The notes under the pieces: generated by a model
Told to the model about the DNA's origin: nothing
Seen by the model: the letters and a program-made list of their open reading frames with translations, nothing else
Database searches by the model: none
Translations under genes and position numbers: made by a program
DNA from: Nemertoderma westbladi
Lineage: Eukaryota; Animalia; Xenacoelomorpha
Length of the DNA: 55,622 nucleotides
Direction: 5' to 3'
NCBI GenBank assembly: GCA_032718475.1
Contig: JAUCBJ010006374.1
Coordinates: 1-55,622 of the forward strand
In this document: positions 1,170 to 53,129 of the stretch, piece by piece
How positions within the stretch are numbered: the stretch's first letter is position 1
How the letters are laid out: every line of letters starts with the position of its first letter

Positions 1170-4100
1170 TCAATCTATTTTCTGACAGGTTTCACCATTC
1201 CCTGCGTAGCCATCAATGCAAGTGCAAAAGAATCCACCATCAGCATCTGTACAATTGGCATTGATATCACAATTATGTGCATCAGCGTTGCATTCGTCCA
1301 CATTTGTACATGTAAATCCATCTCCAGTATATCCCATTATACAAGCACAAACATTTGTTCCAATAAAATTTAAGCAAATTGCGTTATCATCGCATAAACT
1401 ACAAAAATTTATAACATCACAGGTAGTTAATCCGTCTCCATCATATCCATCTTTACACTTACAGTTAAAACTCCCATTAGTATCAGTACAGATTGCATTA
1501 ACATGACAGTTATGGTTATCTTCAACACATTCATTTATGTTAGCACATATTGTACCAGTCATTCTGTAGCCACTGTGACAAGTGCAGATGTAGCTTCCCT
1601 CTGTATCAGCACAATCTGAATTGTCATCACATGAATCTAAATTTTGACTGCATTCATCCACATTGATGCAACTTTCTCCATTTCCACTATATCCCAAATT
1701 GCAAGTACAACTATATCCACCACCAACATCTGTGCAATATGCATTTAAATGGCAATTGTCTGAATTTTCTTCGCATTCATTTGTGTCTGTACAAGTAAAA
1801 CCATCACCAGTAAATCCATTAACACATATACATATATGTGTTCCATGAGAATTTAAACAAACAGCATTTATGTCACATTTATCATAACCCAATAAACACT
1901 CATTTACATCATCACAATTCGTTAAGCCATCTCCATCATATCCATCTTTACACTTGCAGTTAAAACTCCCATTAGTATCAGTACAGATTGCATTAACATG
2001 ACAGTTATGGTTATCTTCATCACATTCATTTATGTTAGCACATATTGTACCAGTCATTCTGTAGCCACTGTGACAAGTGCAGATGTAGCTTCCCTCTGTA
2101 TCAGCACAATCTGAATTGTCATCACATGAATCTAAATTTTGACTGCATTCATCCACATTGATGCAACTTTCTCCATTTCCACTATATCCCAAATTGCAAG
2201 TACAACTATATCCACCACCAACATCTGTGCAATATGCATTTAAATGGCAATTGTCTGAATTTTCTTCGCATTCATTTGTGTCTGTACAAGTAAAACCATC
2301 ACCAGTAAATCCATTAACACATATACATATATGTGTTCCATGAGAATTTAAACAAACAGCATTTATGTCACATTTATCATAACCCAATAAACACTCATTT
2401 ACATCATCACAATTCGTTAAGCCATCTCCATCATATCCATCTTTACAGTTGCAGTTAAAACTTACATTAGTATCAGTACAGATTGCATTAATGTGACAGT
2501 TATGGATATCTTCATCACATTCATTTATGTTAGCACATATTGTACCAGTCATTCTGTAGCCACTGTGACAAGTGCAGATGTAGCTTCCCTCTGTATCAGC
2601 ACAATCTGAATTGTCATCACATGAATCTAAATTTTGACTGCATTCATCCACATTGACGCAACTTTCTCCATTTCCACTATATCCCAAATTGCAAGTACAA
2701 CTATATCCACCACCAACATCTGTGCAATATGCATTTAAATGGCAATTGTCTAAATTTTCTTCGCATTCATTTGTGTCTGTACAAGTAAAACCATCACCAG
2801 TAAATCCATTAACACATATACATATATGTGTTCCATGAGAATTTAAACAAACAGCATTTATGTCACATTTATCATAACCCAATAAACACTCATTTACATC
2901 ATCACAATTCGTTAAGCCATCTCCATCATATCCATCTTTACACTTGCAGTTAAAACTTCCATTAGTATCAGTACAGATTGCATTAACATGACAGTTATGG
3001 TTATCTTCATCACATTCATTTATGTTAGCACATATTGTACCAGTCATTCTGTAGCCACTGTGACAAGTGCAGATGTAGCTTCCCTCTGTATCAGCACAAT
3101 CTGAATTGTCATCACATGAATCTAAATTTTGACTGCATTCATCCACATTGACGCAACTTTCTCCATTTCCACTATATCCCAAATTGCAAGTACAACTATA
3201 TCCACCACCAACATCTGTGCAATATGCATTTAAATGGCAATTGTCTAAATTTTCTTCGCATTCATTTGTGTCTGTACAAGTAAAACCATCACCAGTAAAT
3301 CCATTAACACATATACATATATGTGTTCCATGAGAATTTAAACAAACAGCATTTATGTCACATTTATCATAACCCAATAAACACTCATTTACATCGTCAC
3401 AATTCGTTAAGCCATCTCCATCATATCCATCTTTACAGTTGCAGTTAAAACTTCCATTAGTATCAGTACAGATTGCATTAATGTGACAGTTATGGATATC
3501 TTCATCACATTCATTTATGTTAGCACATGTTGTACCAGTCATTCTGTAGCCACTGTGGCAGGTGCAGATGTAGCTTCCCTCTGTATCAGCACAATCTGAA
3601 TTTTTATCACATGACTCTAAATTTTGACTGCATTCATCCACATTGACGCAACTTTCTCCATTTCCACTATATCCCATGTTGCAAATGCAACTAAATCCAC
3701 CATCAACATTTGTACAGTATGCATTAATATGGCAATTGTCTAAATTTGCTTCGCATTCATTTGTGTCTGTGCAAGTAAAACCATCACCAGTAAATCCATT
3801 AACACATGTACATATATGTGTTCCATAAGAATTTAAACAAACAGCATTTACATCGCATTTATCAGAACCCAATAAACACTCATTTACATCATCACAAGTA
3901 GTTAATCCGTCTCCATCATATCCATCTTTACACTTACAGTTAAAACTTCCCTTAGTATCACTACAGATTGCATTAACATGACAGTTATGGTTATCTTCTT
4001 CACATTCATTTATGTTAGCACATGTAGTACCAGTCATTCTGTAGCCACTGTGACAAGTGCAGATGTAGCTTCCCTCTGTATCAGCACAATCTGAATTGTC

Positions 4101-4995
4101 ATCACATGAATCTAAATATTGACTGCATTCATCCACATTGACGCAACTTTCTCCATTTCCACTATATCCCAAGTTGCAGGTACAACTAAATCCACCACCA
4201 ACCTCTGAACAGTATGCATTAACATGACAATTGTCCAAATTTGATTCACATTCATTTGTGTCTGTGCAGGTAAAACCATCACCACTAAATCCATTTATAC
4301 AGAAACATATGTGTGTTCCATAAGAATTAAAACAAACAGCATTTATATCACATTTATCAGAACCCAATAAACACTCATTTATATCATCACAAGTAGTTAA
4401 TCCATCTCCATCATATCCATCTTTACACTTGCAGTTAAAACTCCCTGTAGTATCACTACAGATTGCATTATCATGACAGTTATGAATATCTTCATCACAT
4501 TCATTTATATTTGCACATATAGTACCAGTCATTCTATATCCATTGTGGCAGGTGCAGATGTAGCTTCCCTCTGAATCAGCACAATCTGAATTTTTATCAC
4601 ATAAATCTAAATTTTGGCTGCATTCATCCACATTGACGCAACTTTCTCCATTTCCACGATATCCCAAGTTGCAAGTGCAACTAAATCCACCATCAACATT
4701 TGTACAGTATGCATTAATATGGCAATTGTCTAAATTTGCTTCGCATTCATTTGTGTCTGTGCAGGTAAAACCATCCCCAGTAAATCCATTAACACATACA
4801 CATATATGCGTTCCATATGAATTATAACAAACAGCATTTAAATCACATTTATCATGACCCAATAAACACTCATTTATGTCATCACAATTCGTTAATCCAT
4901 TTCCATCATATCCATCTTTACAAACACATGAAAAACTTCCAATAGTATCAGTACATATTGCATTAGAGTGGCACATATCTTGGTCACATTCATTG
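1170..4995 (-). repeat. Coding tandem repeat, 495-bp (165-aa) unit of four calcium-binding-type EGF modules, about 7.75 copies (31 EGF)
   Basis: Shadow ORFs recur at 1663, 2158, 2653, 3148, 3643 and 4633 (495-bp phase). Modules carry D/N-x-D/N-E-C and mostly C-x-D/N-x4-F/Y-x-C; one module per tetramer has H at the aromatic position. Confidence 0.95.
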
Positions 4996-7900
4996 GTGTT
5001 AATGCATGGATTTCCAGTATAGCCCTCATTACAGACACAAATGTTGTTGCCATCTATCTCAATACAGGCAGCATTTTGTTCGCAAATAGCTGGATCTGAG
5101 GTACATTCAACTACTTCTTCAGTTATAATACATGATCCTCCGTTTCCAGTGTAGCCCGGATTACAGATACAAATATCATTATTGGCAACTTCAGTACAGG
5201 CAGCATTTTGATCACAAATATTATGATCTGAAGTACAATCAACTGTATCACCAGTTTTAGTACATGTTCCTCCATTTCCTGAGTATCCCTGATTACAGAC
5301 ACAAATATCACTACCACCAACTTCTGTACAGGCAGCATTTTGGTCACAAATATTAGGACTTGAAGTACAATCAACTACTTCTTCAGTTTTAATACATATT
5401 CTTCCATTTCCTGTGTATCCCTGAATACATACACAATTGCCACTACCATCTATAACAATACAGATAGAATTTGGGTCACAAACACTATGATCTGAAGTAC
5501 AATCAACTGTATTATCAGTTTTAGTACATGTTCCTCCATTTCCTGAGTATCCCTGATTACAGACACAAATATCACTACCACCAACTTCAGTACAGGCAGC
5601 ATTTTGGTCACAAATATTAGGATCTGAAGTACAATCAACTACTTCTTCAGTTTTAATACATATTCTTCCATTTCCTGTGTATCCCTGAATACATACACAA
5701 TTGCCACTACCATCTATAACAATACAGATAGAATTTGGGTCACAAACACTATGATCTGAAGTACAATCAACTGTATTATCAGTTTTAGTACATGTTCCTC
5801 CATTTCCTGAGTATCCCTGATTACAGACACAAATATCATTATCACCAATTTCAGTACAGGCAGCATTTTCATCACAAATATTAGGACTTGAAGTACAATC
5901 AACTACTTCTTCAGTTTTAATACATATTCCTCCATTTCCTGTGTATTCCTGAATACATACACAATTGCCACTACCATCTATAACAATACAGATAGCATTT
6001 GGGTCACAAACACTAGGATCTGAAGAACAATCAACTGTATCATCAGTTTTAGTACATGTTCCTCCATTTCCTGTGTATCCCTGATTACAGACACAAATGT
6101 AATTACCACCAACTTCTGTACAGGCAGCATTTTGGTCACAAATATTAGGATCTGAAGTACAATCAACTGTATTTTCAGTACATGTTCTACCATTTCCTGT
6201 ATATCCCTGTTTACAGACACAAATATCACTTCCACCAACTTCCGTACAGGCACCATTTTCATCACAAATATTAGGACTTGAAGAACAATCAACTACTTCT
6301 TCAGTTTTAATACATATTCCCCCATTTCCTGTGTATCCCTGATTACAGACACAAATATCATTGCTACCAACTTCAGTACAGGCAGCATTTTCATCACAAA
6401 TATTCGGATCAGAATTACAATCCACTACTTCTTCCGTTTTAATACATGTTCCTCCGTTTCCTGTGTATCCCTGAATACATACACAAATGCCACTACCATC
6501 TATAACAATACAGATAGCATTTGGGTCACAAACACTAGGATCTGAAGTACAGTCAACTGTATCATCAGTTTTAGTACATGTTCCTCCATTTCCTGAGTAT
6601 CCCTGATTACAGACACAAATATCATTACCACCAACTTCAGTACAGCCAGCATTTTGGTCACAAATATTAGGACTTGAAGTACAATCAACCACTTCTTCAG
6701 TTTTAATACATATTCCTCCATTTCCTGTGTATCCCTGATTACAGACACAAATATCATTACCACCAACTTCAGTACAGCCAGCATTTTGGTCACAAATATT
6801 AGGACTTGAAGTACAATCAACCACATCTTCAGTTTTAATACATATTCCTCCATTTCCTGTGTATCCCTGATTACAGACACAAATATCATTATCACCAACT
6901 TCTGTACAGGCAGCATTTTCATCACAAATATTAGGACTTGAAGTACAATCAACCACTTCTTCAGTTTTAATACATATTCCTCCATTTCCTGTGTATCCCT
7001 GATTACAGACACAAATATCATTATCACCAACTTCAGTACAGGCAGCATTTTCATCACAAATATTAGGACTTGAAGAACAATCAACTACTTCTTCAGTTTT
7101 AATACATATTCTTCCATTTCCTGTGTATCCCTGAATACATACACAATTGCCACTACCATCTATAACAATACAGATAGCATTTGGGTCACAAACACTAGGA
7201 TCTGAAGTACAGTCAACTGTATCATCAGTTTTAGTACATGTTCCTCCATTTCCTGAGTATCCCTGATTACAGACACAAATATCATTATCACCAACTTCAG
7301 TACAGGCAGCATTTTCATCACAAATATTAGGACTTGAAGAACAATCAACTACTTCTTCAGTTTTAATACATATTCCCCCATTTCCTGTGTATCCCTGATT
7401 ACAGACACAAATGTCATTACCACCAACTTCAGTACAGGCAGCATTTTGGTCACAAATATTAGGATCTGAAGTACAATCAACTGTATCACCAGATTTAGTA
7501 CATGTTCCTCCATTTCCTGTGTATCCCTGATTACAGACACAAATATCATTACCACCAACTTCTGTACAGGCAGCATTTTGTTCACAAATATTAGGATCTG
7601 AAGTACAATCAACTACTTCTTCAGTTTTAATACATATTCCCCCATTTCCTGTGTATCCCTGATTACAGACACAAATATCATTATCACCAACTTCTGTACA
7701 GGCAGCATTTTCATCACAAATATTAGGACTTGAAGAACAATCAACTACTTCTTCAGTTTTAATACATATTCCCCCATTTCCTGTGTATCCCTGATTACAG
7801 ACGCAAATATCATTACCACCAACTTCTGTACAGGCAGCATTTTGGTCACAAATATTAGGATCTGAAGTACAATCAACTACTTCTTCAGTTTTAATACATA

Positions 7901-10900
7901 TTCTTCCATTTCCTGTATATCCTTGAATACATACACAATTGCCACTACCATCTATAATAATACAGATAGCATTTGTGTCACAAACACTTGGATCTGAAGT
8001 ACAATCAACTGTATCATCAGTTTTAGTACATGTTCCTCCATTTCCTGAGTATCCCTGATTACAGACACAAATATCATTATCACCAACTTCAGTACAGGCA
8101 GCATTTTGGTCACAAATATTAGGATCTGAAGTACAATCAACTACTTCTTCAGTTTTAATACATATTCTTCCATTTCCTGTATATCCTTGAATACATACAC
8201 AATTGCCACTACCATCTATAATAATACAGATAGCATTTGTGTCACAAACACTTGGATCTGAAGTACAATCAACTGTATCATCAGTTTTAGTACATGTTCC
8301 TCCATTTCCTGAGTATCCCTGATTACAGACACAAATATCATTATCACCAACTTCAGTACAGGCAGCATTTTGGTCACAAATATTAGGACTTGAAGAACAA
8401 TCAACTACTTCTTCAGTTTTAATACATATTCCCCCATTTCCTGTATATCCCTGATTACAGACACAAATATCATTACCACCAACTTCTGTACAGGCAGCAT
8501 TTTGGTCACAAATATTAGGATCTGAAGTACAATCAACTATTTCTTCAGTTTTAATACATATTCTTCCATTTCCTGTGTATCCCTGAATACATACACAATT
8601 GCCACTACCATCTATAACAATACAGATAGCATTTGGGTCACAAACACTAGGATCAGAAGTACAGTCAACTGTATCATCAGTTTTAGTACATGTTCCTCCA
8701 TTTCCTGTATATCCCTGATTACAGACACAAATATCATTACCACCAATTTCTGTACAGGCAGCATTTTGGTCACAAATATTAGGATCTGAAGTACAATCAA
8801 CTGTATCATCAGTTTTAGTACATGTTCCTCCATTTCCTGAGTATCCCTGATTACAGACACAAATATCATTATCACCAACTTCTGTACAGGCAGCATTTTG
8901 GTCACAAATATTCGGATCAGAAGTACAATCAACTGTATCATCAGTTTTAGTACATGTTCCTCCATTTCCTGAGTATCCCTGATTACAGACACAAATATCA
9001 TTACCACCAATTTCTGTACAGGCAGCATTTTGGTCACAAATATTAGGATCTGAAGTACAATCAACTGTATCATCAGTTTTAGTACATGTTCCTCCATTTC
9101 CTGAGTATCCCTGATTACAGACACAAATATCATTACCACCAACTTCTGTACAGGCAGCATTTTGGTCACAAATATTAGGACTTGAAGTACAATCAACTAC
9201 TTCTTCAGTTTTAATACATATTCTTCCATTTCCTATGTATCCCTGAATACATACACAATTGCTACTACCATCTATAACAATACAGATAGCATTTGGGTCA
9301 CAAACACTAGGATGAGAAGTACAGTCAACTGTATCATCAGTTTTAGTACATGTTCCTCCATTTCCTGTATATGCCTGATTACAGACACAAATATCATTAT
9401 CACCAACTTCAGTACAGGCAGCATTTTCATCACAAATATTAGGACTTGAAGAACAATCAACTACTTCTTCAGTTTTAATACATATTCCCCCATTTCCTGT
9501 ATATCCCTGATTACAGACACAAATATCATTACCACCAACTTCTGTACAGGCAGCATTTTCATCACAAATATTAGGATCTGAAGTACAATCAACTATTTCT
9601 TCAGTTTTAATACATATTCTTCCATTTCCTGTGTATCCCTGAATACATACACAGTTGCCACTACCCTCTATAATAATACAGATAGCATTTGGGTCACAAA
9701 CACTTGGATCTGAAGTACAATCAACTGTATCATCAGTTTTAGTACATGTTCCTCCATTTCCTGTATATCCCTGATTACAGACACAAATATCATTACCACC
9801 AATTTCTGTACAGGCAGCATTTTGGTCACAAATATTAGGATCTGAAGTACAATCAACTGTATCATCAGTTTTAGTACATGTTCCTCCATTTCCTGTATAT
9901 CCCTGATTACAGACACAAATATCATTACCACCAACTTCTGTACAGGCAGCATTTTCATCACAAATATTAGGACTTGAAGTACATTCAACTACTTCTTCAG
10001 TTTTAATACATATTCCCCCATTTCCTGTATATCCCTGATTACAGACACAAATATCATTACCACCAACTTCAGTACAGGCAGCATTTTCATCACAAATATT
10101 AGGACTTGAAGTACATTCAACTACTTCTTCAGTTTTAATACATATTCCCCCATTTCCTGTATATCCCTGATTACAGACACAAATATCATTACCACCAACT
10201 TCAGTACAGGCAGCATTTTCATCACAAATATTAGGACTTGAAGAACAATCAACTACTTTTTCAGTTTTAATACATATTCCCCCATTTCCTGAGTATCCCT
10301 GATTACAGACACAAATATCATTATCACCAACTTCAGTACAGGCAGCATTTCCATCACAAATATTAGGACTTGAAGTACAATCAACTACTTCTTCGGTTTT
10401 AATACATATTCTTCCATTTCCTGTGTATCCCTGAATACATACACAATTGCCACTACCATCTATAACAATACAGATAGCATTTGGGTCACAAACACTTAGA
10501 TCTGAAGTACAATCAACTGTATCATCAGTTTTAGTACATGTTCCTCCATTTCCTGTATATCCCTGATTACAGACACAAATATCATTACGACCAATTTCTG
10601 TACAGGCAGCATTTTGGTCACAAATATTAGGATCTGAAGTACAATCAACTGTATCATCAGTTTTAGTACATGTTCCTCCATTTCCTGTATATCCCTGATT
10701 ACAGACACAAATATCATTATCACCAACTTCAGTACAGGCAGCATTTTCATCACAAATATTATGACTTGAAGAACAATCAACTACTTCTTCAGTTTTAATA
10801 CATATTCCCCCATTTCCTGTGTATCCCTGATTACAGACACAAATATCATTACCACCAACTTCAGTACAGGCAGCATTTTGGTCACAAATATTAGGATCTG

Positions 10901-13900
10901 AAGTACAATCAACTACTTCTTCAGTTTTAATACATATTCTTCCATTTCCTGTGTATCCCTGAATACATACACAATTGCCACTACCATCTATAACAATACA
11001 GATAGCATTTGGGTCACAAACACTAGGTTCTGAAGTACAGTCAACTGTATCATCAGTTTTAGTACATGTTCCCCCATTTCCTGTATATCCCTGATTACAG
11101 ACACAAATGTAATTAACACCAACTTCAGTACAGGCAGCATTTTGGTCACAAATATTAGGACTTGAAGTACAATCAACTACTTCTTCAGTGTTAATACATA
11201 TTCCTCCATTTCCTGTGTATCCCTGATTACAGACACAAATATCATTACGACCAATTTCTGTACAGGCAGCATTTTGGTCACAAATATTAGGATCTGAAGT
11301 ACAATCAACTGTATCATCAGTTTTAGTACATGTTCCTCCATTTCCTGTATATCCCTGATTACAGACACAAATATCATTATCACCAACTTCAGTACAGGCA
11401 GCATTTTCATCACAAATATTAGGACTTGAAGAACAATCAATTACTTCTTCAGTTTTAATACATATTCCCCCATTTCCTGTGTATCCCTGATTACAGACAC
11501 AAATATCATTACCACCAACTTCAGTACAGGCAGCATTTTCATCACAAATATTAGGACTTGAAGAACAATCAACTACTTCTTCAGTTTTAATACATATTCC
11601 CCCATTTCCTGTGTATCCCTGATTACAGACACAAATATCATTACCACCAACTTCTGTACAGGCAGCATTTTGGTCACAAATATTAGGATCTGAAGTACAA
11701 TCAACTACTTCTTCAGTTTTAATACATATTCTTCCATTTCCTGTGTATCCCTGAATACATACACAATTGCCACTACCATCTATAACAATACAGATAGCAT
11801 TTGGGTCACAAACACTAGGATCTGAAGTACAATCAACTGTATCATCAGTTTTAGTACATGTTCCTCCATTTCCTGAGTATCCCTGATTACAGACACAAAT
11901 ATCATTATCACCAACTTCAGTACAGGCAGCATTTTCATCACAAATATTAGGACTTGAAGTACAATCAACTACTTCTTCAGTTTTAATACATATTCTTCCA
12001 TTTCCTGTGTATCCCTGAATACATACACAGTTGCCACTACCATCTATAACAATACAGATAGCATTTGGGTCACAAACACTAGGATCTGAAGTACAATCAA
12101 CTGTATCATCAGTTTTAGTACATGTTCTTCCATTTCCTGAGTATCCCTGATTACAGACACAAATATCATTATCACCAACTTCAGTACAGGCAGCATTTTG
12201 GTCACAAATATTAGGATCTGAAGTACAATCAACTACTTCTTCAGTTTTAATACATATTCTTCCATTTCCTGTATATCCTTGAATACATACACAGTTGCCA
12301 CTACCATCTATAATAATACAGATAGCATTTGTGTCACAAACACTTGGAACTGAAGTACAATCAACTGTATTATCAGTTTTAGTACATGTTCCTCCATTTC
12401 CTGTATATCCCTGATTACAGACACAAATATCACTACCACCAACTTTTGTACAGGCAGCATTTTGGTCACAAATATTAGGATCTGAAGTACAATCAACTAC
12501 TTCTTCAGTTTTAATACATATTCTTCCATTTCCTGTGTATCCCTGAATACAGACACAAATATCATTACCACCAACTTCAGTACAGGCAGCATTTTCATCA
12601 CAAATATTAGGATCTGAAGTACAATCAACTACTTCTTCAGTTTTAATACATATTCTTCCATTTCCTGTGTATCCCTGAATACAGACACAAATATCACTAC
12701 CACCAACTTCTGTACAGGCAGCATTTTGGTCACAAATATTAGGATCTGAAGTACAATCAACTACTTCTTCAGTTTTAATACATATTCCCCCATTTCCTGT
12801 GTATCCCTGATTACAGACACAAATGTAATTACCACCAACTTCAGTACAGGCAGCATTTTCATCACAAATATTAGGATCTGAAGTACAATCAACTACTTCT
12901 TCAGTTTTAATACATATTCTTCCATTTCCTGTATATCCTTGAATACATACACAGTTGCCACTACCATCTATAATAATACATATAGCATTTGTGTCACAAA
13001 CACTTGGAACTGAAGTACAATCAACTGTATTATCAGTTTTAGTACATGTTCCTCCATTTCCTGTATATCCCTGATTACAGACACAAATATCACTACCACC
13101 AACTTCTGTACAGGCAGCATTTTGGTCACAAATATTAGGATCTGAAGTACAATCAACTACTTCTTCAGTTTTAATACATATTCTTCCATTTCCTGTGTAT
13201 CCCTGAATACAGACACATATATCATTACCACCAACTTCAGTACAGGCAGCATTTTCATCACAAATATTAGGACTTGAAGAACAATCAACTACTTCTTCAG
13301 TTTTAATACATATTCCCCCATTTCCTGTGTATCCCTGATTACAGACACAAATATCATTACCACCAACTTCTGTACAGGCAGCATTTTGGTCACAAATATT
13401 AGGATCTGAAGTACAATCAACTGTATTATCAGTTTTAGTACATGTTCCTCCATTTCCTGTATATCCATTATTACAGACACAAATATCACTACCACCAACT
13501 TCTGTACAGGCAGCATTTTGGTCACAAATATTAGGATCTGAAGTACAATCAACTACTTCTTCAGTTTTAATACATATTCTTCCATTTCCTGTGTATCCCT
13601 GAATACAGACACAAATATCATTATCACCAACATCAGTACAGGCAGCATTTTCATCACAAACATTAGGACTTGAAGAACAATCAACTACTTCTTCAGTTTT
13701 AATACATATTCCCCCATTTCCTGTGTATCCCTGATTACAGACACAAATATAATTACCACCAACTTCTGTACAGGCAGCATTTTGGTCACAAATATTAGGA
13801 TCTGAAGTACAATCAACTACTTCTTCAGTTTTAATACATATTCCCCCATTTCCTGTATATCCCTGATTACAGACACAAATATCATTATCACCAACATCAG

Positions 13901-16900
13901 TACAGGCAGCATTTTCATCACAAACATTAGGACTTGAAGAACAATCAACTACTTCTTCAGTTTTAATACATATTCCCCCATTTCCTGTGTATCCCTGATT
14001 ACAGACACAAATATCATTACCACCAACTTCTGTACAGGCAGCATTTTGGTCACAAATATTAGGATCTGAAGTACAATCAACTACTTCTTCAGTTTTAATA
14101 CATATTCCCCCATTTCCTGTGTATCCCTGATTACAGACACAAATATCATTACCACCAACTTCTGTACAGGCAGCATTTTCGTCACAAATATTAGGACTTG
14201 AAGTACAATCAACTACTTCTTCAGTTTTAATACATATTCCTCCATTTCCTGTATATCCTTGAATACATACACAATTGCCACTACCATCTATAACAATACA
14301 GATAGCATTTGGGTCACAAACACTAGGATCTGAACTACAATCAACTGTATCACCAGTTTTAGTACATGTTCCTCCATTTCCTGAGTATCCCTGATTACAG
14401 ACACAAATATCATTATCACCAACTTCTGTACAGGCAGCATTTTCATCACAAATATTAGGACTTGAAGTACAATCAACTACTTCTTCAGTTTTAATACATA
14501 TTCTTCCATTTCCTATGTATCCCTGATTACAGACACAAATATCATTACCACCAACTTCTGTACAGGCAGCATTTTGGTCACAAATATTAGGATCTGAAGT
14601 ACAATCAACTACTTCTTCAGTTTTAATACATATTCTTCCATTTCCTGTGTATCCCTGATTACAGACACAAATATCATTACCACCAACTTCTGTACAGGCA
14701 GCATTTTGGTCACAAATATTAGGATCTGAAGTACAATCAACTGTATCATCAGTTTTAGTACATGTTCCTCCATTTCCTGAGTATCCCTGATTACAGACAC
14801 AAATATCATTATCACCAACTTCTGTACAGGCAGCATTTTGGTCACAAATATTAGGATCTGAAGTACAATCAACTACTTCTTCAGTTTTAATACATATTCT
14901 TCCATTTCCTGTGTATCCCTGAATACATACACAATTGCCACTACCATCTATAACAATACAGATAGCATTTGGGTCACAAACACTAGGATCTGAAGTACAG
15001 TCAACTGTATCATCAGTTTTAGTACATGTTCCTCCATTTCCTGAGTATCCCTGATTACAGACACAAATATCATTATCACCAACTTCAGTACAGGCAGCAT
15101 TTTCATCACAAATATTAGGACTTGAAGTACAATCAACTACTTCTTCAGTTTTAATACATATTCTTCCATTTCCTGTGTATCCCTGAATACATACACAATT
15201 GCCACTACCATCTATAATAATACAGATAGCATTTGGGTCACAAACACTTGGATCTGAAATACAATCAACTGTATCATCAATTTTAGTACATGTTCCTCCA
15301 TTTCCTGTATATCCCTGATTACAGACACAAATATCATTACCACCAATTTCTGTACAGGCAGCATTTTGGTCACAAATATTAGGATCTGAAGTACAATCAA
15401 CTGTATCATCAGTTTTAGTACATGTTCCTCCATTTCCTGTATATCCCTGATTACAGACACAAATATCATTACCACCAACTTCAGTACAGGCAGCATTTTG
15501 GTCACAAATATTAGGATCTGAAGTACAATCAACTGTATCATCAGTTTTAGTACATGTTCCTCCATTTCCTGAGTATCCCTGATTACAGACACAAATATCA
15601 TTATCACCAACTTCAGTACAGGCAGCATTTTCATCACAAATATTAGGACTTGAAGAACAATCAACTACTTCTTCAGTTTTAATACATATTCCCCCATTTC
15701 CTGTGTATCTCTGATTACAGACGCAAATATCATTACCACCAACTTCTGTACAGGCAGCATTTTCATCACAAATATTAGGACTTGAAGAACAATCAACTAC
15801 TTCTTCAGTTTTAATACATATTCCCCCATTTCCTGTGTATCCCTGATTACAGACACAAATATCATTACCACCAACTTCTGTACAGGCAGCATTTTGGTCA
15901 CAAATATTAGGATCTGAAGTACAATCAACTACTTCTTCAGTTTTAATACATATTCTTCCATTTCCTGTGTATCCCTGAATACATACACAATTGCCACTAC
16001 CATCTATAACAATACAGATAGCATTTGGGTCACAAACACTAGGATCTGAAGTACAATCAACTGTATCATCAGTTTTAGTACATGTTCCTCCATTTCCTGA
16101 GTATCCCTGATTACAGACACAAATATCATTATCACCAACTTCTGTACAGGCAGCATTTTGGTCACAAATATTAGGATCTGAAGTACAATCAACTACTTCT
16201 TCAGTTTTAATACATATTCTTCCATTTCCTGTGTATCCCTGAATACATACACACTTGCCACTACCATCTATAACAATACAGATAGCATTTGGGTCACAAA
16301 CACTAGGATCTGAAGTACAGTCAACTGTATCATCAGTTTTAGTACATGTTCCTCCATTTCCTGAGTATCCCTGATTACAGACACAAATATCATTATCACC
16401 AACTTCTGTACAAGCAGCATTTTGGTCACAAATATTAGGACTTGAAGTACAATCAACTACTTCTTCAGTTTTAATACATATTCTTCCATTTCCTGTGTAT
16501 CCCTGAATACATACACAATTGCCACTACCATCTATAACAATACAGATAGCATTTGGGTCACAAACACTTGGATCTGAAGTACAATCAACTGTATCATCAA
16601 ATTTAGTACATGTTCCTCCATTTCCTGTATATCCCTGATTACAGACACAAATATCATTACCACCAATTTCTGTACAGGCAGCATTTTGGTCACAAATATT
16701 AGGATCTGAAGTACAATCAACTGTATCATCAGTTTTAGTACATGTTCCTCCATTTCCTGTATATCCCTGATTACAGACACAAATATCATTACCACCAACT
16801 TCAGTACAGGCAGCATTTTGGTCACAAATATTAGGATCTGAAGTACAATCAACTACTTCTTCAGTTTTAATACATATTCTTCCATTTCCTGTGTATCCCT

Positions 16901-19900
16901 GAATACAGACACAAATATCATTACCACCAACTTCAGTACAGGCAGCATTTTCATCACAAATATTAGGACTTGAAGAACAATCAACTACTTCTTCAGTTTT
17001 AATACATATTCCCCCATTTCCTGTGTATCCCTGATTACAGACACAAATATCATTACCACCAACTTCTGTACAGGCAGCATTTTGGTAACAAATATTAGGA
17101 TCTGAAGTACAGTCAACTGTATCATCAGTTTTAGTACATGTTCCTCCATTTCCTGAGTATCCCTGATTACAGACACAAATATCATTATCACCAACTTCTG
17201 TACAGGCAGCATTTTCATCACAAATATTAGGACTTGAAGAACAATCAACTACTTCTTCAGTTTTAATACATATTCCCCCATTTCCTGTGTATCCCTGATT
17301 ACAGACACAAATGTCATTACCACCAACTTCAGTACAGGCAGCATTTTGGTCACAAATATTAGGATCTGAATTACAATCAACTACTTCTTCAGTTTTAATA
17401 CATATTCTTCCATTTCCTGTGTATTCCTGATTACAGACACAAATATCATTACCACCAACTTCTGTACAGGCAGCATTTGGGTCACAAACACTAGGATCTG
17501 AAGTACAGTCAACTGTATCATCAGTTTTAGTACATGTTCCTCCATTTCCTGAGTATCCCTGATTACAGACACAAATATCATTACCACCAACTTCTGTACA
17601 GGCAGCATTTTGGTCACAAATATTAGGATCTGAAGTACAATCAACTGTATCATCAGTTTTTGTACATGTTCCTCCATTTCCTGAGTATCCCTGATTACAG
17701 ACACAAATATCATTACCACCAACTTCTGTACAGGCAGCATTTTGGTCACAAATATTAGGATCTGAATTACAATCAACTACTTCTTCAGTTTTAATACATA
17801 TTCTTCCATTTCCTGTGTATCCCTGAATACATACACAATTGCCACTACCATCTATAATAATACAGATAGCATTTGTATCACAAACACTTGGATCTAAAGT
17901 ACAATCAACTGTATCATCAGTTTTAGTACATGTTCCTCCATTTCCTGAGTATCCCTGATTACAGACACAAATATCATTACCACCAACTTCTGTACAGGCA
18001 GCATTTTGGTCACAAATATTAGGATCTGAAGTACAGTCAACTGTATCATCAGTTTTAGTACATGTTCCTCCATTTCCTGAGTATCCCTGATTACAGACAC
18101 AAATATCATTATCACCAACTTCAGTACAGGCAGCATTTTCATCACAAATATTAGGATCTGAAGTACAATCAACTACTTCTTCAGTTTTAATACATATTCT
18201 TCCATTTCCTGTGTATCCCTGAATACATACACAATTGCCACTACCATCTATAATAATACAGATAGCATTTGTGTCACAAACACTTGGATCTAAAGTACAA
18301 TCAACTGTATCATCAGTTTTAGTACATGTTCCTCCATTTCCTGAGTATCCCTGATTACAGACACAAATATCATTACCACCAACTTCTGTACAGGCAGCAT
18401 TTTGGTCACAAATATTAGGATCTGAAGTACAGTCAACTGTATCATCAGTTTTAGTACATGTTCCTCCATTTCCTGAGTATCCCTGATTACAGACACAAAT
18501 ATCATTATCACCAACTTCAGTACAGGCAGCATTTTCATCACAAATATTAGGACTTGAAGAACAATCAACTACTTCTTCAGTTTTAATACATATTCCCCCA
18601 TTTGCTGTATATCCCTGATTACAGACACAAATATCATTACCACCAACTTCTGTACAGGCAGCATTTTGGTCACAAATATTAGGATCTGAAGTACAATCAA
18701 CTACTTCTTCAGTTTTAATACATATTCTTCCATTTCCTGTGTATCCCTGAATACATACACAGTTGCCACTACCATCTATAATAATACAGATAGCATTTGG
18801 GTCACAAACACTTGGATCTGAAGTACAATCAACTATATCATCAGTTTTAGTACATGTTCCTCCATTTCCTGTATATCCCTGATTACAGACACAAATATCA
18901 TTACCACCAATTTCTGTACAGGCAGCATTTTCATCACAAATATTAGGACTTGAAGTACAATCAACTGTATCCTCAGTTTTAGTACATGTTCCTCCATTTC
19001 CTGTATATCCCTGTTTACAGACACAAATATCATTACCACCCACTTCAGTACAGGCAGCATTTTGGTCACAAATATTAGGATCTGAAGTACAATCAACTGT
19101 ATCTTCAATACATGTTCTACCATTTCCTGTATATCCCTGTTTACAGACACAAATATCACTTCCACCAAGTTCAGTACAGGCTGCATTTTCATCACAAATA
19201 TTAGGACTTGAAGTACAATCAACTGTATCCTCAGTTTTAGTACATGTTCCTCCATTTCCTGTATATCCCTGTTTACAGACACAAATATCATTACCACCAA
19301 CTTCTGTACAGGCAGCATTTTGGTCACAAATATTAGGATCTGAAATACAATCAACTACTTCTTCAGTTTTAATACATATTCTTCCATTTCCTGTGTATCC
19401 CTGGATACATACACAGTTGCCACTACCATCTATAACAATACAGATAGCATTTGGGTCACAAACACTTGGATCTGAAGTACAATCAACTGTATCATCAGTT
19501 TTAGTACATGTTCCTCCATTTCCTGTATATCCCTGTTTACAGACACAAATATCATTACCACCAACTACAGTACAGGCAGCATTTTGGTCACAAATATTAG
19601 GACTTGAAGTACAATCAACTGTATCCTCAGTTTTAGTACATGTTCCTCCATATCCTGTATATCCCTGTTTACAGACACAAATATCATTACCACCAACTTC
19701 AGTACAGGCAGCATTTTCATCACAAATATTAGGAATTGAAGTACAATCAACTACTTCTTCAGTTTTAATACATATTCCTCCATTTCCTGTGTATCCCTCA
19801 TTACAGACACAAATATCACTACCACCAACTTCAGTACAGGCAGCATTTTGATCACAAATATTAGGATCTGAATTACAATCGACTATGTCTTCAATTTTAA

Positions 19901-34900: not shown

Positions 34901-37900
34901 TATTAGAATTTGATGTACAATCAACTATATCTTCAGTTTTAATACATGTACCTCCATTTCCTGTGTATCCCTGATTACAGACACAAATATCACTACCACC
35001 AACTTCAGTACAGTCAGCATTTTGATCACAAATATTAGAATTTGATGTACAATCAACTATATCTTCAGTTTTAATACATGTTCCTCCATTTCCAGTGTAT
35101 CCCTCATTACAGACACAAATATCACTACCACCAACTTCAGTACAAACAGCATTTTCATCACAAATATTCGGATCAGAATTACAATCCACTACTTCTTCCA
35201 TTTTATTACATGTTCTTCCGTTTCCAGTGTATCCCTGATTACAGACACAAATATCACTACCACCAACTTCAGTACAGGCAGCATTTTGATCACAAATATT
35301 CGGATCAGAATTACAATCCACTACTTCTTCCGTTTTAATACATGTTCCTCCGTTTCCAGTGTATCCCTGATTACAGACACAAATATCACTACCACCAACT
35401 TCAGTACAGTCAGCACTTTGATCACAAATATTAGAATTTGATGTACAATCAACTATATCTTCAGTTTTAATACATGTACCTCCATTTCCTGTGTATCCCT
35501 GATTACAGACACAAATATCACTACCACCAACTTCAGTACAGTCAGCATTTTGATCACAAATATTAGAATTTGATGTACAATCAACTATATCTTCAGTTTT
35601 AATACATGTTCCTCCATTTCCAGTGTATCCCTCATTACAGACACAAATATCACTACCACCAACTTCAGTACAAACAGCATTTTCATCACAAATATTCGGA
35701 TCAGAATTACAATCCACTACTTCTTCCATTTTATTACATGTTCCTCCGTTTCCAGTGTATCCCTGATTACAGACACAAATATCATTTTCACCAACATCAG
35801 TACATGCAGCATTTTGATCACAAATATTAGGATCTGAACTACAGTCAACTGTATCACCAGTTTTAGTACATGTTCCTCCATTTCCTGAGTATCCCTGATT
35901 ACAGACACAAATATCATTATCGCCAACTTCAGTACAGGCAGCATTTTCATCACAAATATTCGGATCAGAATTACAATCCACTACTTCTTCCGTTTTAATA
36001 CATGTTCCTCCGTTTCCAGTGTATCCCTCATTACAGACACAAATATCACTACCACCAACTTCAGTACAGTCAGCATTTTGATCACAAATATTAGAATTTG
36101 ATGTACAATCAACTATATCTTCAGTTTTAATACATGTACCTCCATTTCCTGTGTATCCCTGATTACAGACACAAATATCACTACCACCAACTTCAGTACA
36201 GTCAGCATTTTGATCACAAATATTAGAATTTGATGTACAATCAACTATATCTTCAGTTTTAATACATGTTCCTCCATTTCCAGTGTATCCCTCATTACAG
36301 ACACAAATATCACTACCACCAACTTCAGTACAAACAGCATTTTCATCACAAATATTCGGATCAGAATTACAATCCACTACTTCTTCCGTTTTAATACATG
36401 TTCCTCCGTTTCCAGTGTATCCCTCATTACAGACACAAATATCACTACCACCAACTTCAGTACAGGCAGCATTTTCATCACAAATATTCGGATCAGAATT
36501 ACAATCCACTACTTCTTCCGTTTTAATACATGTTCCTCCGTTTCCAGTGTATCCCTCATTACAGACACAAATATCACTACCACCAACTTCAGTACAGGCA
36601 GCATTTTCATCACAAATATTCGGATCAGAATTACAATCCACTACTTCTTCCGTTTTAATACATGCTCCTCCGTTTCCAGTGTATCCCTGATTACAGACAC
36701 AAATATCACTACCACCAACTTCAGTACAGGCAGCATTTTGATCACAAATATTAGGATCTGAATTACAATCAACTATATCTTCAGATTTAATACATGTACC
36801 TCCATTTCCTGTGTATCCCCGATTACAGACACAAATATCACTACCACCAACTTCAGTACAGTCAGCATTTTGATCACAAATATTAGAATTTGAAGTACAA
36901 TCAACTATATCTTCAGTTTTAATACATGTACCTCCATTTCCTGTGTATCCCTGATTACAGACACAAATATCACTACCACCAACTTCAGTACAGTCAGCAT
37001 TTTGATCACAAATATTAGAATTTGAAGTACAATCAACTATATCTTCAGTTTTAATACATGTACCTCCATTTCCTGTGTATCCCTGATTACAGACACAAAT
37101 ATCACTACCACCAACTTCAGTACAGGCAGCATTTTGATCACAAATATTAGGATCTGAATTACAATCAACTATATCTTCAGATTTAATACATGTACCTCCA
37201 TTTCCTGTGTATCCCTGATTACAGACACAAATATCACTACCACCAACTTCAGTACAGTCAGCATTTTGATCACAAATATTAGAATTTGAAGTACAATCAA
37301 CTATATCTTCAGTTTTAATACATGTACCTCCATTTCCTGTGTATCCCTGATTACAGACACAAATATCACTACCACCAACTTCAGTACAGTCAGCATTTTG
37401 ATCACAAATATTAGAATTTGAAGTACAATCAACTATATCTTCAGTTTTAATACATGTACCTCCATTTCCTGTGTATCCCTGATTACAGACACAAATATCA
37501 CTACCACCAACTTCAGTACAGGCAGCATTTTGATCACAAATATTAGGATCTGAATTACAATCAACTATATCTTCAGATTTAATACATGTACCTCCATTTC
37601 CTGTGTATCCCTGATTACAGACACAAATATCACTACCACCAACTTCAGTACAGTCAGCATTTTGATCACAAATATTAGAATTTGATGTACAATCAACTAT
37701 ATCTTCAGTTTTAATACATGTACCTCCATTTCCTGTGTATCCCTGATTACAGACACAAATATCACTACCACCAACTTCAGTACAGTCAGCATTTTGATCA
37801 CAAATATTAGAATTTGAAGTACAATCAACTATATCTTCAGTTTTAATACATGTACCTCCATTTCCTGTGTATCCCTGATTACAGACACAAATATCACTAC

Positions 37901-39819
37901 CACCAACTTCAGTACAGTCAGCATTTTGATCACAAATATTAGAATTTGATGCACAATCAACTATATCTTCAGTTTTAATACATGTACCTCCATTTCCTGT
38001 GTATCCCTGATTACAGACACAAATATCACTACCACCAACTTCAGTACAGTCAGCATTTTGATCACAAATATTAGAATTTGATGTACAATCAACTATATCT
38101 TCAGTTTTAATACATGTACCTCCATTTCCTGTGTATCCCTGATTACAGACACAAATATCACTACCACCAACTTCAGTACAGGCAGCATTTTCATTACAAA
38201 TATTCGGATCAGAATTACAATCCACTACTTCTTCTGTTTTAATACATGTTCCTCCGTTTCCAGTGTATCCCTGATTACAGACACAAATATCACTACCACC
38301 AACTTCAATACAGGCAGCATTTTCATCACAAATATTCGGATCAGAATTACAATCCACTACTTCTTCTGTTTTAATACATGTTCCTCCGTTTCCAGTGTAT
38401 CCCTTATTACAGACACAAATATCACTACCACCAACTTCAGTACAGGCAGCATTCTGATCACAAATATTAGGATCTGAAGTACAATCAACTATATTTTCAG
38501 TTTTAATACATGTACCTCCATTTCCTGTGTATCCCTGATTACAGACACAAATATCATTACCACCAACTTCAGTACAGGCTGCATTTTGGTCACAAATATT
38601 CAGATCAGAATTACAATCCACTACTTCTTCCGTTTTAATACATGTTCCTCCGTTTCCAGTGTAGCCCTCATTACAGACACAAATATCATTGCTACCAACT
38701 TCAGTACAGTCAGCATTTTGATCACAAATATTAGAATTTGAAGTACAATCAACTATATCTTCAGTTTTAATACATGTACCTCCATTTCCTATGTATCCCT
38801 GATTACAGACACAAATATCACTACCACCAACTTCAGTACAGGCAGCATTTTCATCACAAATATTCGGATCAGAATTACAATCCACTACTTCTTCTGTTTT
38901 AATACATGTTCTTCCGTTTCCAGTGTATCCCTGATTACAGACACAAATATCACTACCACCAACTTCAATACAGGCAGCATTTTGGCCACAAATATTAGGA
39001 TCAGAATTACAATCCACTACTTCTTCCGTTTTAATACATGTTCCTCCGTTTCCAGTGTATCCCTGATTACAGACACAAATATCACTACCACCAACTTCAA
39101 TACAGGCAGCATTTTCATCACAAATATTCGGATCAGAATTACAATCCACTACTTCTTCCGTTTTAATACATGTTCCTCCGTTTCCAGTGTATCCCTGATT
39201 ACAGACACAAATATCACTACCACCAACTTCAGTACAGGCAGCATTTTCATCACAAATATTCGGATCAGAATTACAATCCACTACTTCTTCCGTTTTAATA
39301 CATGTTCCTCCGTTTCCAGTGTATCCCTGATTACAGACACAAATATCACTACCACCAACTTCAATACAGGCAGCATTTTCATCACAAATATTCGGATCAG
39401 AATTACAATCCACTACTTCTTCTGTTTTAATACATGTTCTTCCGTTTCCAGTGTATCCCTGATTACAGACACAAATATCACTACCACCAACTTCAGTACA
39501 GGCAGCATTCTGATCACAAATATTAGGATCTGAAGTACAATCAACTATATCTTCAGTTTTAATACATGTACCTCCATTTCCTGTGTATCCCTGATTACAG
39601 ACACAAATATCATTACCACCAACTTCAGTACAGGCTGCATTTTGGTCACAAACAATTGGATCTGCCTTACACTCCAATGTTTCTGCATCTTTCATTATAA
39701 TAAACATTTTTGAAAATTCTTCAACTTGGATAATTGAACGAGATGACAGAGGTTCGGTGACCACAACTATGTTTCCAATGAATATATGAAAGTGGTAAAC
39801 TCTTTTTCCAATGTAGTTA
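1170..39819 (-). CDS. Exon 6 (terminal, 38,650 bp) of a giant secreted hemopexin-like/multi-EGF protein: end of the hemopexin-like head, 263 non-Ca-binding EGF modules, 31 cbEGF-type modules, stop
   Basis: Uninterrupted 12,889-codon ORF of six-Cys EGF modules. The ORF-track start is TTG in intron sequence; the likely entry is the acceptor ctttgcag|T-AAC-TAC at 39819, matching the phase-2 donor of exon 5. Ends ...ETCQKID-TGA at 1170. Confidence 0.93.
4990..39680 (-). repeat. Coding tandem repeat, 132-bp (44-aa) EGF unit, 263 copies; consensus EEVVDCNSDPNICDENAACTEVGGSDICVCNQGYTGNGGTCIKT
   Basis: First-Cys codons of the first (39669) and last (5103) units are 34,566 bp apart. Adding back three in-frame 6-bp deletions gives exactly 262 x 132. 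Confidence 0.95.
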
Positions 39820-40132: not shown

Positions 40133-40250
40133 CTGATTACAGCATTCCATGGCGCAGAAGTAATAGCAGTTATTTGTGGAAATGCCACATCTATTGGTAC
40201 TTTGTATATCAGCCGCGAAGTTTCCAGATCATAAACATAAGCATGAATAT
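40133..40250 (-). CDS. Exon 5 (118 bp), hemopexin-like blades 3-4: (D)IHAYVYDLETSRLIYKVPIDVAFPQITAITSAPWNAVI(S)
   Basis: Strong polypyrimidine acceptor ttttttcttcttcag|AT and donor AG|gtaata. Phase 1 in and phase 2 out, compatible with both neighbours; open frame. Confidence 0.85.
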
Positions 40251-41987: not shown

Positions 41988-42147
41988 CTGATGCCAGTAT
42001 AACATGACGAGATCCTCCATTATGGAAATAGGCAATCGAAGTTACACCATCTGGAATTGGCCCCCCTATAACATGTGAGTAATATCCAATCATATCAACG
42101 ACAAATTTACCATCGACAAATTTCATCCGCACATATTTACCTACAAT
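41988..42147 (-). CDS. Exon 4 (160 bp), hemopexin-like blades 2-3: IVGKYVRMKFVDGKFVVDMIGYYSHVIGGPIPDGVTSIAYFHNGGSRHVILAS
   Basis: Acceptor ttatttattacag|ATT and donor TCAG|gtatag. Phase 0 in and phase 1 out, joining exons 3 and 5 in frame. Confidence 0.82.
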
Positions 42148-45679: not shown

Positions 45680-45831
45680 TCCAACAATCAATAGTCGGTC
45701 CGCCAAATAGTCATAATAGCCGTCCAACACCTGGAAACCTTCATCCATCAACGGAAACTCATCAATGATTTTCTTCGGATATGACGGCAAGGTTGCACCA
45801 GTTTCTATATTCACTTTCCATGCGTAAAGTC
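45680..45831 (-). CDS. Exon 3 (152 bp), hemopexin-like blades 1-2: (G)LYAWKVNIETGATLPSYPKKIIDEFPLMDEGFQVLDGYYDYLADRLLIVG
   Basis: Acceptor cacccgcag|GA and donor GGA|gtgagt. G-x-Y-x-W...SYPKKIIDEFP resembles the hemopexin-repeat motif G..YW...GYPK.I...FP. Confidence 0.88.
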
Positions 45832-46082: not shown

Positions 46083-46137
46083 GAAGTCGAAAATCGTAAA
46101 ATTATATTGGTAAATTAAAAATACAAAGAATACACAC

Positions 46138-46275
46138 CTTTAAGTAAATACGCGTAATCCCATTTACGGCCGACGCGTTCTGGTGACGTAAACGCGGCTT
46201 GTATCGGAGGGGATAATTCCACTGAGTACAATTCTCCATGGCAACTAGATAAGCTGCTAACGATTAGGTAAATAT
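46138..46275 (-). CDS. Exon 2 (138 bp): signal peptide end and hemopexin-like blade 1: IYLIVSSLSSCHGELYSVELSPPIQAAFTSPERVGRKWDYAYLLK(G)
   Basis: Acceptor aatttaattttag|AT and donor AAAG|gtgtgt, phase 1/1. IQAAF...YAYLLKG resembles hemopexin IDAAF...TYFFKG. Confidence 0.85.
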
Positions 46276-51235: not shown

Positions 51236-52623
51236 TCCCTACTTCTTGTAACATCAATGATTCAACCCTCTGTTTATGTTTCAGGATTGCAGCGATATCT
51301 TCTGCTGGGTTCAAATCAGGTGAATTACCTGGCCATTCATTATTTCCAAAGAAATCAATATTTGCATTCCGCAGTAGTGATTGGGTGGGAAGTGCGCTCA
51401 TACAAGGTGCACGATCATGGAGAAAATTACATTATTATTATCACGTAGGAATGGTATAACATGACGAGTTAGCACATCATCTCGAAAGTATTGGCCATTC
51501 CAGGATTCGCCCTGCTCCTTAATGATGAACATTAAGTACTTCACCGTGAACATAATAAATATCCCAATGCATTGCAGCCCACTTGGAACCTGGCGATAGT
51601 GAACATGATCTGGAATCTGGTCCAATCTAAAAGCCCAAACTCGATCATTTTGGTGGTTAGGAGGTCGCGTGGTCCAAACGTAAAACTTATCAAATGCATC
51701 CAAGATGCATGAAGTCTTCAGCATACCATTATCGCAAATTATCGTTCAACCGGATCCGATCTTCCCGGTTGTGATCTGTCAGAAGTGGTTCTTTATGACA
51801 TGAAAAGCGATAAGTTTCTGCCGCTTAAACTCCCGAAATACTGCGCCTAAACTCTTCCCCTTTCCCATGATTTCATCGATCTCCTTCATCACGCCACGTA
51901 CAGACTTCTGAGCCCGACCCACCATATTGGATACAATGTCCCGCGATTCCTGTGACAATGAGATAGGGCGTCCAGTTCCGTCTAGCATTTTGCAATTATA
52001 ACTATTTTTATTCCAATTACTCTTAACAAAGCTCTCGCTCCAACTGAGTTTTTTTTGCAACCCACGACTTTGTTATGAAATTCGCCTCTGAATTCCACGC
52101 CTCTCTGAAAGTTATTGCGCGAATTCTGTCAAACCACTGAACCGCGCTAGTATCATTATGTCGCAATTGGCTTAAGAACAATTTCATTATGCTAATAGTC
52201 AGGGTGTGGAATAAGAGAATTGTAGGTGGATTTTTTTTTATTAAACGATATTACAGTGATCTTTGAAAAATTGAATACTTGGAAAAATATGAAAAAAGCA
52301 ACGTTTGGCAAATGAATTAATCTCACTTACCTGTAGTCATCCGACAGACATACAGACAGTCATTCCTGAATTCGAAGGATATCAACCCGGTCGGTGGTGG
52401 TAGGCCTACTAACAAAAACTTTCAGTTTTGTACAAATTGTTCTGGTACAAATGGAACGCTTTAGAAATTGATTCACTGTGGTCGAAATCCTTGGTATAAT
52501 ATGACAAGAAATTTTGTACAGAGATCCGAAATTAAATTCCCTATCGAATGGTATATTACTTGACTGTTAACCGATATCGGAAGTGTCTGTACTAGAGGGG
52601 GGTCATCATTATGGAACACCCGG
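51236..52623 (-). mobile_element. Decayed Tc1/mariner-superfamily (ITm) transposon with DD37E transposase, 3'-truncated
   Basis: Frameshifted fragments DRIRAITFREA, GRPISLS, PNHQNDRVWA and FLHDRAPC...WPGNSPDLNPAE, with 37 residues between the second D and the E. TIR-like 5' end TA|CCGGGTGTTCCATAATGATGACCCC at 52623. Confidence 0.85.
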
Positions 52624-52625
52624 TA

Positions 52626-52690
52626 TACTTCGATTGGCTAAACATTATTGGTAATAAAAAAATACAACTAGTGGGTTTTTCAATTCAATA
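52626..52690 (+). repeat. Partial third copy of the foldback-element arm
   Basis: TACTTCGATTGGCTAAA...TTGGTAATAAAA..TACAAC...GGGTTTTTCAATTCAAT matches 48406-48470. Confidence 0.8.
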
Positions 52691-53107
52691 TAAAATAATG
52701 TAAAGTTGAATCTTAATAATGGCTAACTCAAGTCGGTCTGAAGTTCTCTCGTCTACGGCTAGAGGGCGAAATGTCTGAAAGTGAAATCTTTGACCCATTG
52801 CGTTTATTTATGATCCGTTCAAGCAAGCGAAAACCATAAATACATCCGAGTATTTGTGGGCTCGGTATTCAGTTCTGTATGTGACGTGCTGAGGGCCCAA
52901 CTTCATGTATTATATATTCTATCATTTAACGTTAAAAGCTTTTTAAAAAAGGTCCTAACATTTTTGATAGTAAATAGAGTACATGTAAGATGGGGCTTTG
53001 TCTTCCTTAAGGCTTCCAATCTCCAATTCTTTACAGTAGTTACGTTTGGCAATGGTAAAAATAAAATTAATGCTAGTGAAATAAATGTACAGGTATAATA
53101 TACTTAC

Positions 53108-53129
53108 AGATTATAGTTTGTATTATCAT
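53108..53129 (-). CDS. Exon 1 coding part (22 bp): ATG, MIIQTII; completes a 21-aa signal peptide MIIQTIIYIYLIVSSLSSCHG
   Basis: ATG in context aagaacATGa (A at -3), followed by a consensus donor T|gtaagt in phase 1, matching exon 2. Splicing gives a hydrophobic core and a plausible C-H-G cleavage site. Short exon, so less certain. Confidence 0.7.

Follow-up and report, generated by a model that had tools for sequence, protein, structure and literature searches.

A predicted megadalton secreted protein of 294 EGF modules with a partly hemopexin-like head in Nemertoderma westbladi

We analysed a stretch of the xenacoelomorph Nemertoderma westbladi genome (GenBank assembly GCA_032718475.1, contig JAUCBJ010006374.1; the window is the whole stretch of 55,622 nt), whose minus strand carries an intact run of 294 epidermal growth factor (EGF) modules in one stop-free frame of 12,901 codons (39875-1173). 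This run is real and unusual. Its predicted gene adds a signal peptide and a head that is probably hemopexin-type, and the most likely product is a structural EGF protein of the octovafibrin type, known from octopus egg threads, that is ten times longer. We put the probability that the secreted chain acts as a tether or fibre in extracellular material at roughly 0.55. The window is AT-rich and contains no N, and it holds GT-AG introns and the remains of mobile elements.

The EGF array

Past the head, the predicted protein contains 1,764 cysteines, which is exactly 294 x 6, and all of them lie within six-cysteine modules. The spacing C-6-C-5-C-8-C-1-C-10-C was found in 284 of the 294 modules, and 259 of the 293 linkers were 8 residues long. 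The modules form an acidic array of 263 and a terminal array of 31 calcium-binding EGF (cbEGF) modules (Table 1), the same division that the original prediction had proposed together with about 1,760 cysteines. Calcium-binding modules are recognised by [DN]x[DN][EQ] before the first cysteine (C1) and by [DN]...[FY] between C3 and C4. The first motif was present in 30/31 modules of the last array and the second in 22/31, whereas neither occurred in any of the 263 acidic modules. Identity within the cbEGF array was 89% at lag 4, as compared with 37-41% at lags 1-3. Pfam EGF_3 (PF12947) and EGF_CA (PF07645), suggested earlier as a check on the modules, both scored above their cut-offs in the three array pieces scanned (about 2,050 of 12,883 exon-6 residues). 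When three modules were modelled from their sequence alone (mean pLDDT 58), the top Foldseek matches were EGF modules of NELL1/2, Notch and uromodulin, with low TM-scores.

The composition of the chain was 17% Asp+Glu, 15% Ser+Thr and 2.8% Lys+Arg, corresponding to a charge of about -6 per module and a calculated pI of about 4. No RGD and no furin-type site was present in the chain, and the motifs for O-fucose and O-glucose were found in 0/293 modules. The consensus for O-GlcNAc addition by EOGT, given as C5-XX-G-[YFL]-[TS]-G-X2-3-C6 in PMC5388531 and PMC3650022, was matched by 1/294 modules only. The core of this consensus, with four residues before C6, occurred in 266/294 modules, which we regard as a lead only. 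Because none of the 263 acidic modules has the calcium-binding motif, this part of the protein is more probably flexible than rigid. An extended EGF module measures about 2.7-3 nm, and by arithmetic the fully extended chain would reach 0.8-0.9 micrometre. This agrees with the near-micrometre length, if extended, that was envisaged earlier.

To describe how the array has changed, we used 258 regular units of the 263, dropping five for odd length or position. The units were about 90% identical; 194/258 had distinct DNA sequences, and the longest stretch duplicated exactly within the exon measured 469 nt. Unit types were zoned, and divergence increased with distance, from about 0.09 for neighbouring units to 0.14 over the whole array. 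This pattern fits local tandem duplication of the 132-nt unit within one exon.

Rare alleles, defined as those found in three units or fewer, comprised 70 non-synonymous and 22 synonymous changes, and the rate of amino-acid change was 0.87 of the synonymous rate. Cysteine loss was never seen among the rare variants (13.7 expected), nor was cysteine gain (1.5 expected) or the creation of a stop (5.1 expected). The joint chance of observing none of the three was about 2e-9, where expectations came from the rate of other changes, with transitions and transversions kept apart and sequence context left out of the model. Neither sequencing errors nor a dead repeat would leave cysteines untouched, and we read these data as strong indirect evidence for translation of the array and for its passage through disulfide quality control. 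They are likewise strong indirect evidence that, beyond cysteines and stops, little in each module is constrained, as for a spacer. The array may serve as a natural experiment, in which near-free amino-acid drift around invariant cysteines indicates what a structural EGF module must keep.

The predicted gene model and head

The spliced model, in which all splices are predicted, spans 39,240 nt and encodes 13,079 aa with a single terminal stop (predicted chain mass 1.345 MDa). All five predicted introns are GT-AG, with phases 1,1,0,1,2; our rebuilt exons gave exactly the length and phases of the original prediction. By crude splice-site scores, each of the five donors was outscored by at most 2% of 1,169 GT sites. 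The corresponding values for the acceptors, among 1,152 AG sites, were 12%, 9%, 2.4%, 0% and 0.5%, such that the acceptor of exon 5 had the top score. Exons 2-5 were GC-richer than their flanks; examples are exon 2 (0.44 vs 0.32 and 0.35) and exon 3 (0.43 vs 0.26 and 0.24). Third-position GC in exon 6 was 14%. The largest human exons are about 17-22 kb, and the predicted coding exon 6 is longer.

Joining exon 1 to exon 2 produced the most hydrophobic N-terminus among 12 short candidates that run from an ATG to a phase-1 donor. An acceptor at 53148 suggests an additional untranslated exon upstream of exon 1. When 558 open phase-1 donors were each joined to exon 3, the exon 2 donor at 46138 gave the highest hemopexin-profile score. 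Where exon 4 ends is uncertain, with phase-1 donors possible at 42111, 41988, 41961 and 41901, of which 42111 scored slightly above the modelled 41988; the alternatives would change the head by -41 to +29 residues.

Residues 1-19 formed the most hydrophobic 19-residue window of the predicted protein (mean 1.75; next best 1.54). This signal-peptide-like start arises across exons 1 and 2, and was judged from hydropathy and by eye, with cleavage placed by eye after residue 21. No membrane segment was found in the predicted 13,079-aa chain up to the stop. These results support a secreted, unanchored protein, and with the strong selection on cysteines they bear out the earlier picture of a disulfide-rich chain led by a signal peptide.

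The head comprises residues 22-246 (225 aa) and has no cysteine between residues 20 and 246. We compared it with hemopexin profiles built from bacterial PF00045 repeats only (8 of 301 genomes; 22, later 28 repeats). The spliced head scored 6.5 bits, a value reached by 3/5,000 shuffles. Alignment with hhalign placed a full blade at head residues 10-65 (probability 46%, E 2e-4), and 0/150 shuffles scored as high; the motifs IQAAF and YPKKI lay at their expected places in blade 1. The hemopexin z value of blade 1 was 7.8, whereas LY, FG-GAP, RCC1 and Kelch profiles gave at most 1.8; of these, the Kelch control was weak (3 sequences only). These comparisons support the presence of one hemopexin-type blade. 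With 225 aa and exons of 40-53 codons, the head would fit four blades by size only, and on this ground a four-bladed propeller is likely. Modelling of the first part of exon 6 from sequence alone gave pLDDT below 50 for the head fragment. The bacterial hemopexin-repeat proteins themselves (L002-L024, from G295, G231 and six other genomes) included one 850-aa frame with 11 matches.

Table 1. Positions of the predicted exons, EGF arrays and 3' signal in the window; all lie on the minus strand.
Feature	Position	Length	Phase	Content
Predicted exon 1	53108..53129 (-)			Start codon and 7 codons; first part of signal peptide
Predicted exon 2	46138..46275 (-)	138 nt	1-1	Remainder of signal peptide; first half of blade 1
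Predicted exon 3	45680..45831 (-)	152 nt	1-0	Second half of blade 1 (YPKKI motif); putative start of blade 2
Predicted exon 4	41988..42147 (-)	160 nt	0-1	Putative blades 2-3; strong acceptor, donor position uncertain
Predicted exon 5	40133..40250 (-)	118 nt	1-2	Putative blade 3-4
Giant exon 6	1170..39819 (-)	38,650 nt		Last 49 head residues, 294 EGF modules, stop codon
Acidic EGF_3-type array	5004..39671 (-)			263 modules; 132-nt / 44-aa unit; net charge about -1,615
cbEGF-type array	1185..4988 (-)			31 modules; four-module super-repeat of about 495 nt
Candidate polyadenylation signal AATAAA	818..823 (-)			About 350 nt past the stop; weak, region AT-rich

Known systems and searches for relatives

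The closest parallel is octovafibrin from the egg threads of Octopus bimaculoides, in which 29 non-calcium EGF modules lie between two lectin domains and form load-bearing fibres (PMC10336842). Octovafibrin assembles end to end, and its disulfides add stiffness and toughness (PMC10336842). It shares with the giant chain a signal peptide, an N-terminal globular domain, the lack of a membrane anchor and, in the acidic array, uninterrupted tandem six-cysteine EGF modules without a calcium motif. The two differ in module number (29 vs 294) and in C1-C2 spacing (4 vs 6 here). Octovafibrin also has C-type lectin domains at both ends and no cbEGF tail, whereas the predicted chain has one hemopexin-like head, without cysteine or a lectin match, and a C-terminus four residues after the last EGF module.

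Tandem EGF repeats also build holdfast and cohesive proteins, such as scallop Sbp9 (49 EGF-like repeats), mussel mfp-2 and sea-star Sfp3/4 (PMC12817120, PMC9382459, PMC11697411). Further examples are Barbatia bcbp-1/2 and the sea-urchin fibropellins (PMC12817120, PMC9382459, PMC11697411, PMC10336842). Like the giant chain, the holdfast and cohesive proteins are secreted, and tandem EGF repeats make up most of their length, accompanied by small binding domains at an end or inside the chain; their repeats number 16-49 where a count is given, and their companion domains are CBD, FAMeT, WSC, C1s-like and avidin. The word hemopexin does not occur in the main text of PMC12817120, PMC9382459 or PMC11697411.

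In module number the nearest system is Drosophila Dumpy, a membrane-anchored protein with 308 EGF and 185 DPY modules (PMC8520396; bioRxiv 10.1101/2025.09.16.676614). Both are megadalton extracellular proteins with about 300 EGF modules. Unlike in Dumpy, the EGF run here is uninterrupted, and no DPY module, ZP domain or anchor was found in the frame up to the stop. Fibrillin resembles the chain in its tandem cbEGF modules, here the last 31 only. In contrast to fibrillin and LTBP, no eight-cysteine TB or hybrid domain was detected, and the last 1,400 aa gave no TB match. The absence of these fibrillin and Dumpy companions had been noted before, and holds for the whole frame up to the stop.

Lubricin (PRG4) offers a parallel for the head, in that its hemopexin-like end anchors a negatively charged, extended domain (PMC13218872). 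The resemblance of our head to lubricin/PRG4, vitronectin and the PEX domain of MMPs consists of one recognisable hemopexin-type blade. Unlike in those proteins, the head is N-terminal and below Pfam detection, and no protease, somatomedin-B or mucin domain lies beside it. Animal PEX domains (MMP, vitronectin, PRG4) are closed by a disulfide between blade 1 and blade 4, and the head has no cysteine with which to form one. Only about 10 residues separate the predicted signal peptide from blade 1, as opposed to the prodomain and zinc catalytic domain that precede the PEX domain of an MMP. Judged by the defining domains of these proteins, the predicted chain is not fibrillin, Dumpy, an MMP or octovafibrin.

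Searches with the head returned no relative. Among 33 candidates for exon 3, none qualified as a homologue. A search of 1.84 billion representatives gave five matches, all unrelated repeat proteins with summed weak matches, and a metagenome search gave one locus (L025) with a 23-residue chance match. Sequence searches of the PDB with exons 3, 4 and part of 2 yielded nothing below E 0.29. In the Atlas, exon 4 had no usable match, and exon 3 had a best score of 0.85 to mixed families, among them a few propeller repeats and no hemopexin, which are leads only. Single-exon searches of the head were weakened because exon borders cut each putative blade. Rfam gave no match in 39800-55622.

With the end of the head and six modules as the query, we obtained 113 proteins of 551-2,000 aa from 7,986 scored candidates (best identity 49%), none of which listed PF00045. 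For proteins of 5,500-17,500 aa, 480 candidates yielded 55 matches, again with no PF00045 among the domains listed; these size-limited searches left out 2,001-5,499 aa. The hemopexin profile matched 0/173 fetched proteins, in which the longest uninterrupted EGF run was 69 modules by pattern (P0115, from a soft coral). No description of a hemopexin + EGF architecture was found in the literature surveyed, in the portions available and with subscription journals not covered. We concluded that a hemopexin-type head on a tandem-EGF chain was not found in the proteins and literature searched, and the possibility of an already described family, raised with the original prediction, gained no support within these ranges. 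The longest protein matched was 7,854 aa; short-read transcriptomes would fragment such genes, and others may hide in long-read genomes.

Proposed function, alternatives and surrounding sequence

We propose that folding in the secretory pathway would turn the chain into 294 beads, each stapled by three disulfides. The predicted head, probably hemopexin-type, might dock on a partner or surface or oligomerise, in the manner of the octovafibrin and lubricin terminal domains. Joined by 8-residue linkers, the 263 modules of the acidic array, strongly negative and free of calcium, would form a flexible, extensible chain in which length and cysteine pattern matter more than exact sequence. The 31 calcium-binding modules would make the tail stiffer, and where the fluid is rich in calcium such tails could pack side by side. 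The array itself probably arose through repeated local duplication of the 132-nt unit inside one exon. If this is true, tandem-EGF structural proteins extend about tenfold beyond octovafibrin, and a Dumpy-sized EGF count can exist in one uninterrupted, unanchored chain with 882 disulfides per molecule.

A more specific version, which we offer tentatively, is that a genuine but strongly diverged, cysteine-free hemopexin propeller caps the longest uninterrupted EGF run seen (294 modules in a single 38.6-kb exon). The product would then be a head-anchored polyanionic thread of just under a micrometre, in which a disulfide-stapled chain takes the role that mucin or collagen domains have elsewhere.

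Several results weigh against our proposal. Octovafibrin has two binding ends and this chain has one, so that it could assemble end to end only if the cbEGF tail acted as the partner, a speculative assumption. Unless cations are present, a charge near -1,800 works against packing. With cleavage after residue 21, the mature chain would also be left without a free cysteine for cross-linking. Other points against it concern the head, for which the profiles were purely bacterial in origin. Pfam found no family in exons 2-5 or at the start of exon 6 when each was scanned singly, and the exon borders split the blades; the PF00045 search suggested as a check on the head gave no match in these pieces, which divide every blade. 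Blades 2-4 gave no hemopexin signal (46/150 and 76/150 shuffles scored as high), and the second half of blade 1 and the other three blades had no significant resemblance to one another (p 0.16-0.97). The four-repeat head proposed earlier is thus borne out for blade 1, which matches the profile, and not for the other three.

Of the alternatives, the one that survives best, though still unlikely, is a lubricin-like brush. Here the head would fix the protein to the surface of an epithelium, an egg or mucus, from which the negatively charged EGF chain would project as a hydrated, slippery, anti-adhesive coat rather than bear load. The pairing of anchor and negative domain in lubricin speaks for it, as do the single globular end, the charge per module and the abundance of Ser+Thr beside few Lys+Arg. 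However, the chain has no mucin-type Pro/Thr/Ser domain and no somatomedin-B domain, the O-GlcNAc consensus is confined to one module, and a simple brush has no need for strict selection on 882 disulfides.

It is distinctly less probable that the gene model is wrong at one end. In this case the small exons would come from another transcript or splicing pattern, or the chain would continue past the window to a ZP domain or membrane anchor, as in Dumpy. Seven one-exon and 24 two-exon in-phase links between exon 3 and exon 6 arise by chance, but in each of the best four two-exon links the acceptors are those of the model, 42147 and 40250. Splicing is required, since upstream of the exon-6 acceptor the frame of the array stays open for only 56 nt. 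Nor does any single exon contain the whole signal peptide or the whole of blade 1: both appear only once exons are joined, which also speaks against this reading. At the 3' end, donor-like sites occur at 1463 and 2466 and the window extends only 1,169 nt beyond the stop. These sites appear to be background, because the giant exon has 61 similar ones, and the last module is complete and followed by four residues, the stop and AATAAA.

We consider it improbable, and slightly more so, that the protein belongs to an acidic biomineral matrix, where a chain rich in Asp and Glu, by binding calcium, would either template or inhibit the growth of carbonate in a skeleton, shell or tube. The acidic composition, the low pI and the 31 calcium-binding modules are in keeping with such a role, and EGF domains are plentiful in the shell proteins of Lingula (PMC4595640). 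Yet the acidity is spread across folded modules and does not cluster in tracts of low complexity, the Pfam-scanned pieces showed no chitin-binding, ZP or lectin domain, and the extreme length would have no obvious use. Lastly, an assembly artefact that inflated the length, or an untranslated, dead coding satellite, is very improbable: the units are alike enough to invite mis-assembly, but most are distinct, no exact duplicate exceeds 469 nt, and the variants avoid cysteines and stops, unlike errors or neutral drift.

The introns of the predicted gene contain several repeats and mobile-element remains. An alternative exon 2 at 48825-48703, which would give 13,074 aa, was rejected; it contributes no hemopexin score and sits in an inverted-repeat element, with its acceptor and hydrophobic part within one arm of an 87-nt, 99% inverted repeat. 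This foldback-like element (46468-49210, intron 1) has its arms at 48427-48513 and 48789-48875, around a 275-nt core that holds a small GT-AG intron-like stretch, and the element mimics a signal-peptide exon. It is bordered by a 1.9-kb (ACTG)n microsatellite of 474 copies and by 21-nt units in inverted arrays, and part of an arm recurs as a third copy near 52630-52700. Intron 1 also contains a LINE-type reverse-transcriptase fragment antisense to the gene (49881-50690 (+); Pfam RVT_1, E 3e-32). Broken frames at 51250-52000 (-) resemble, by eye, a Tc1/mariner-type transposase remnant, and the one piece scanned gave no Pfam transposase match.

In intron 3, a GC-rich minisatellite with a 41-nt unit (42635-44110; 36 copies, 92% match) creates several chance in-phase mini-exons. 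A short (ACAG)n microsatellite lies at 44919-44961, in a setting that we take to recall Helentron-associated non-autonomous elements. Upstream of exon 1, two direct copies of about 155 nt (54688-54970) are 82-90% identical in parts, and may be regulatory or a small repeat.

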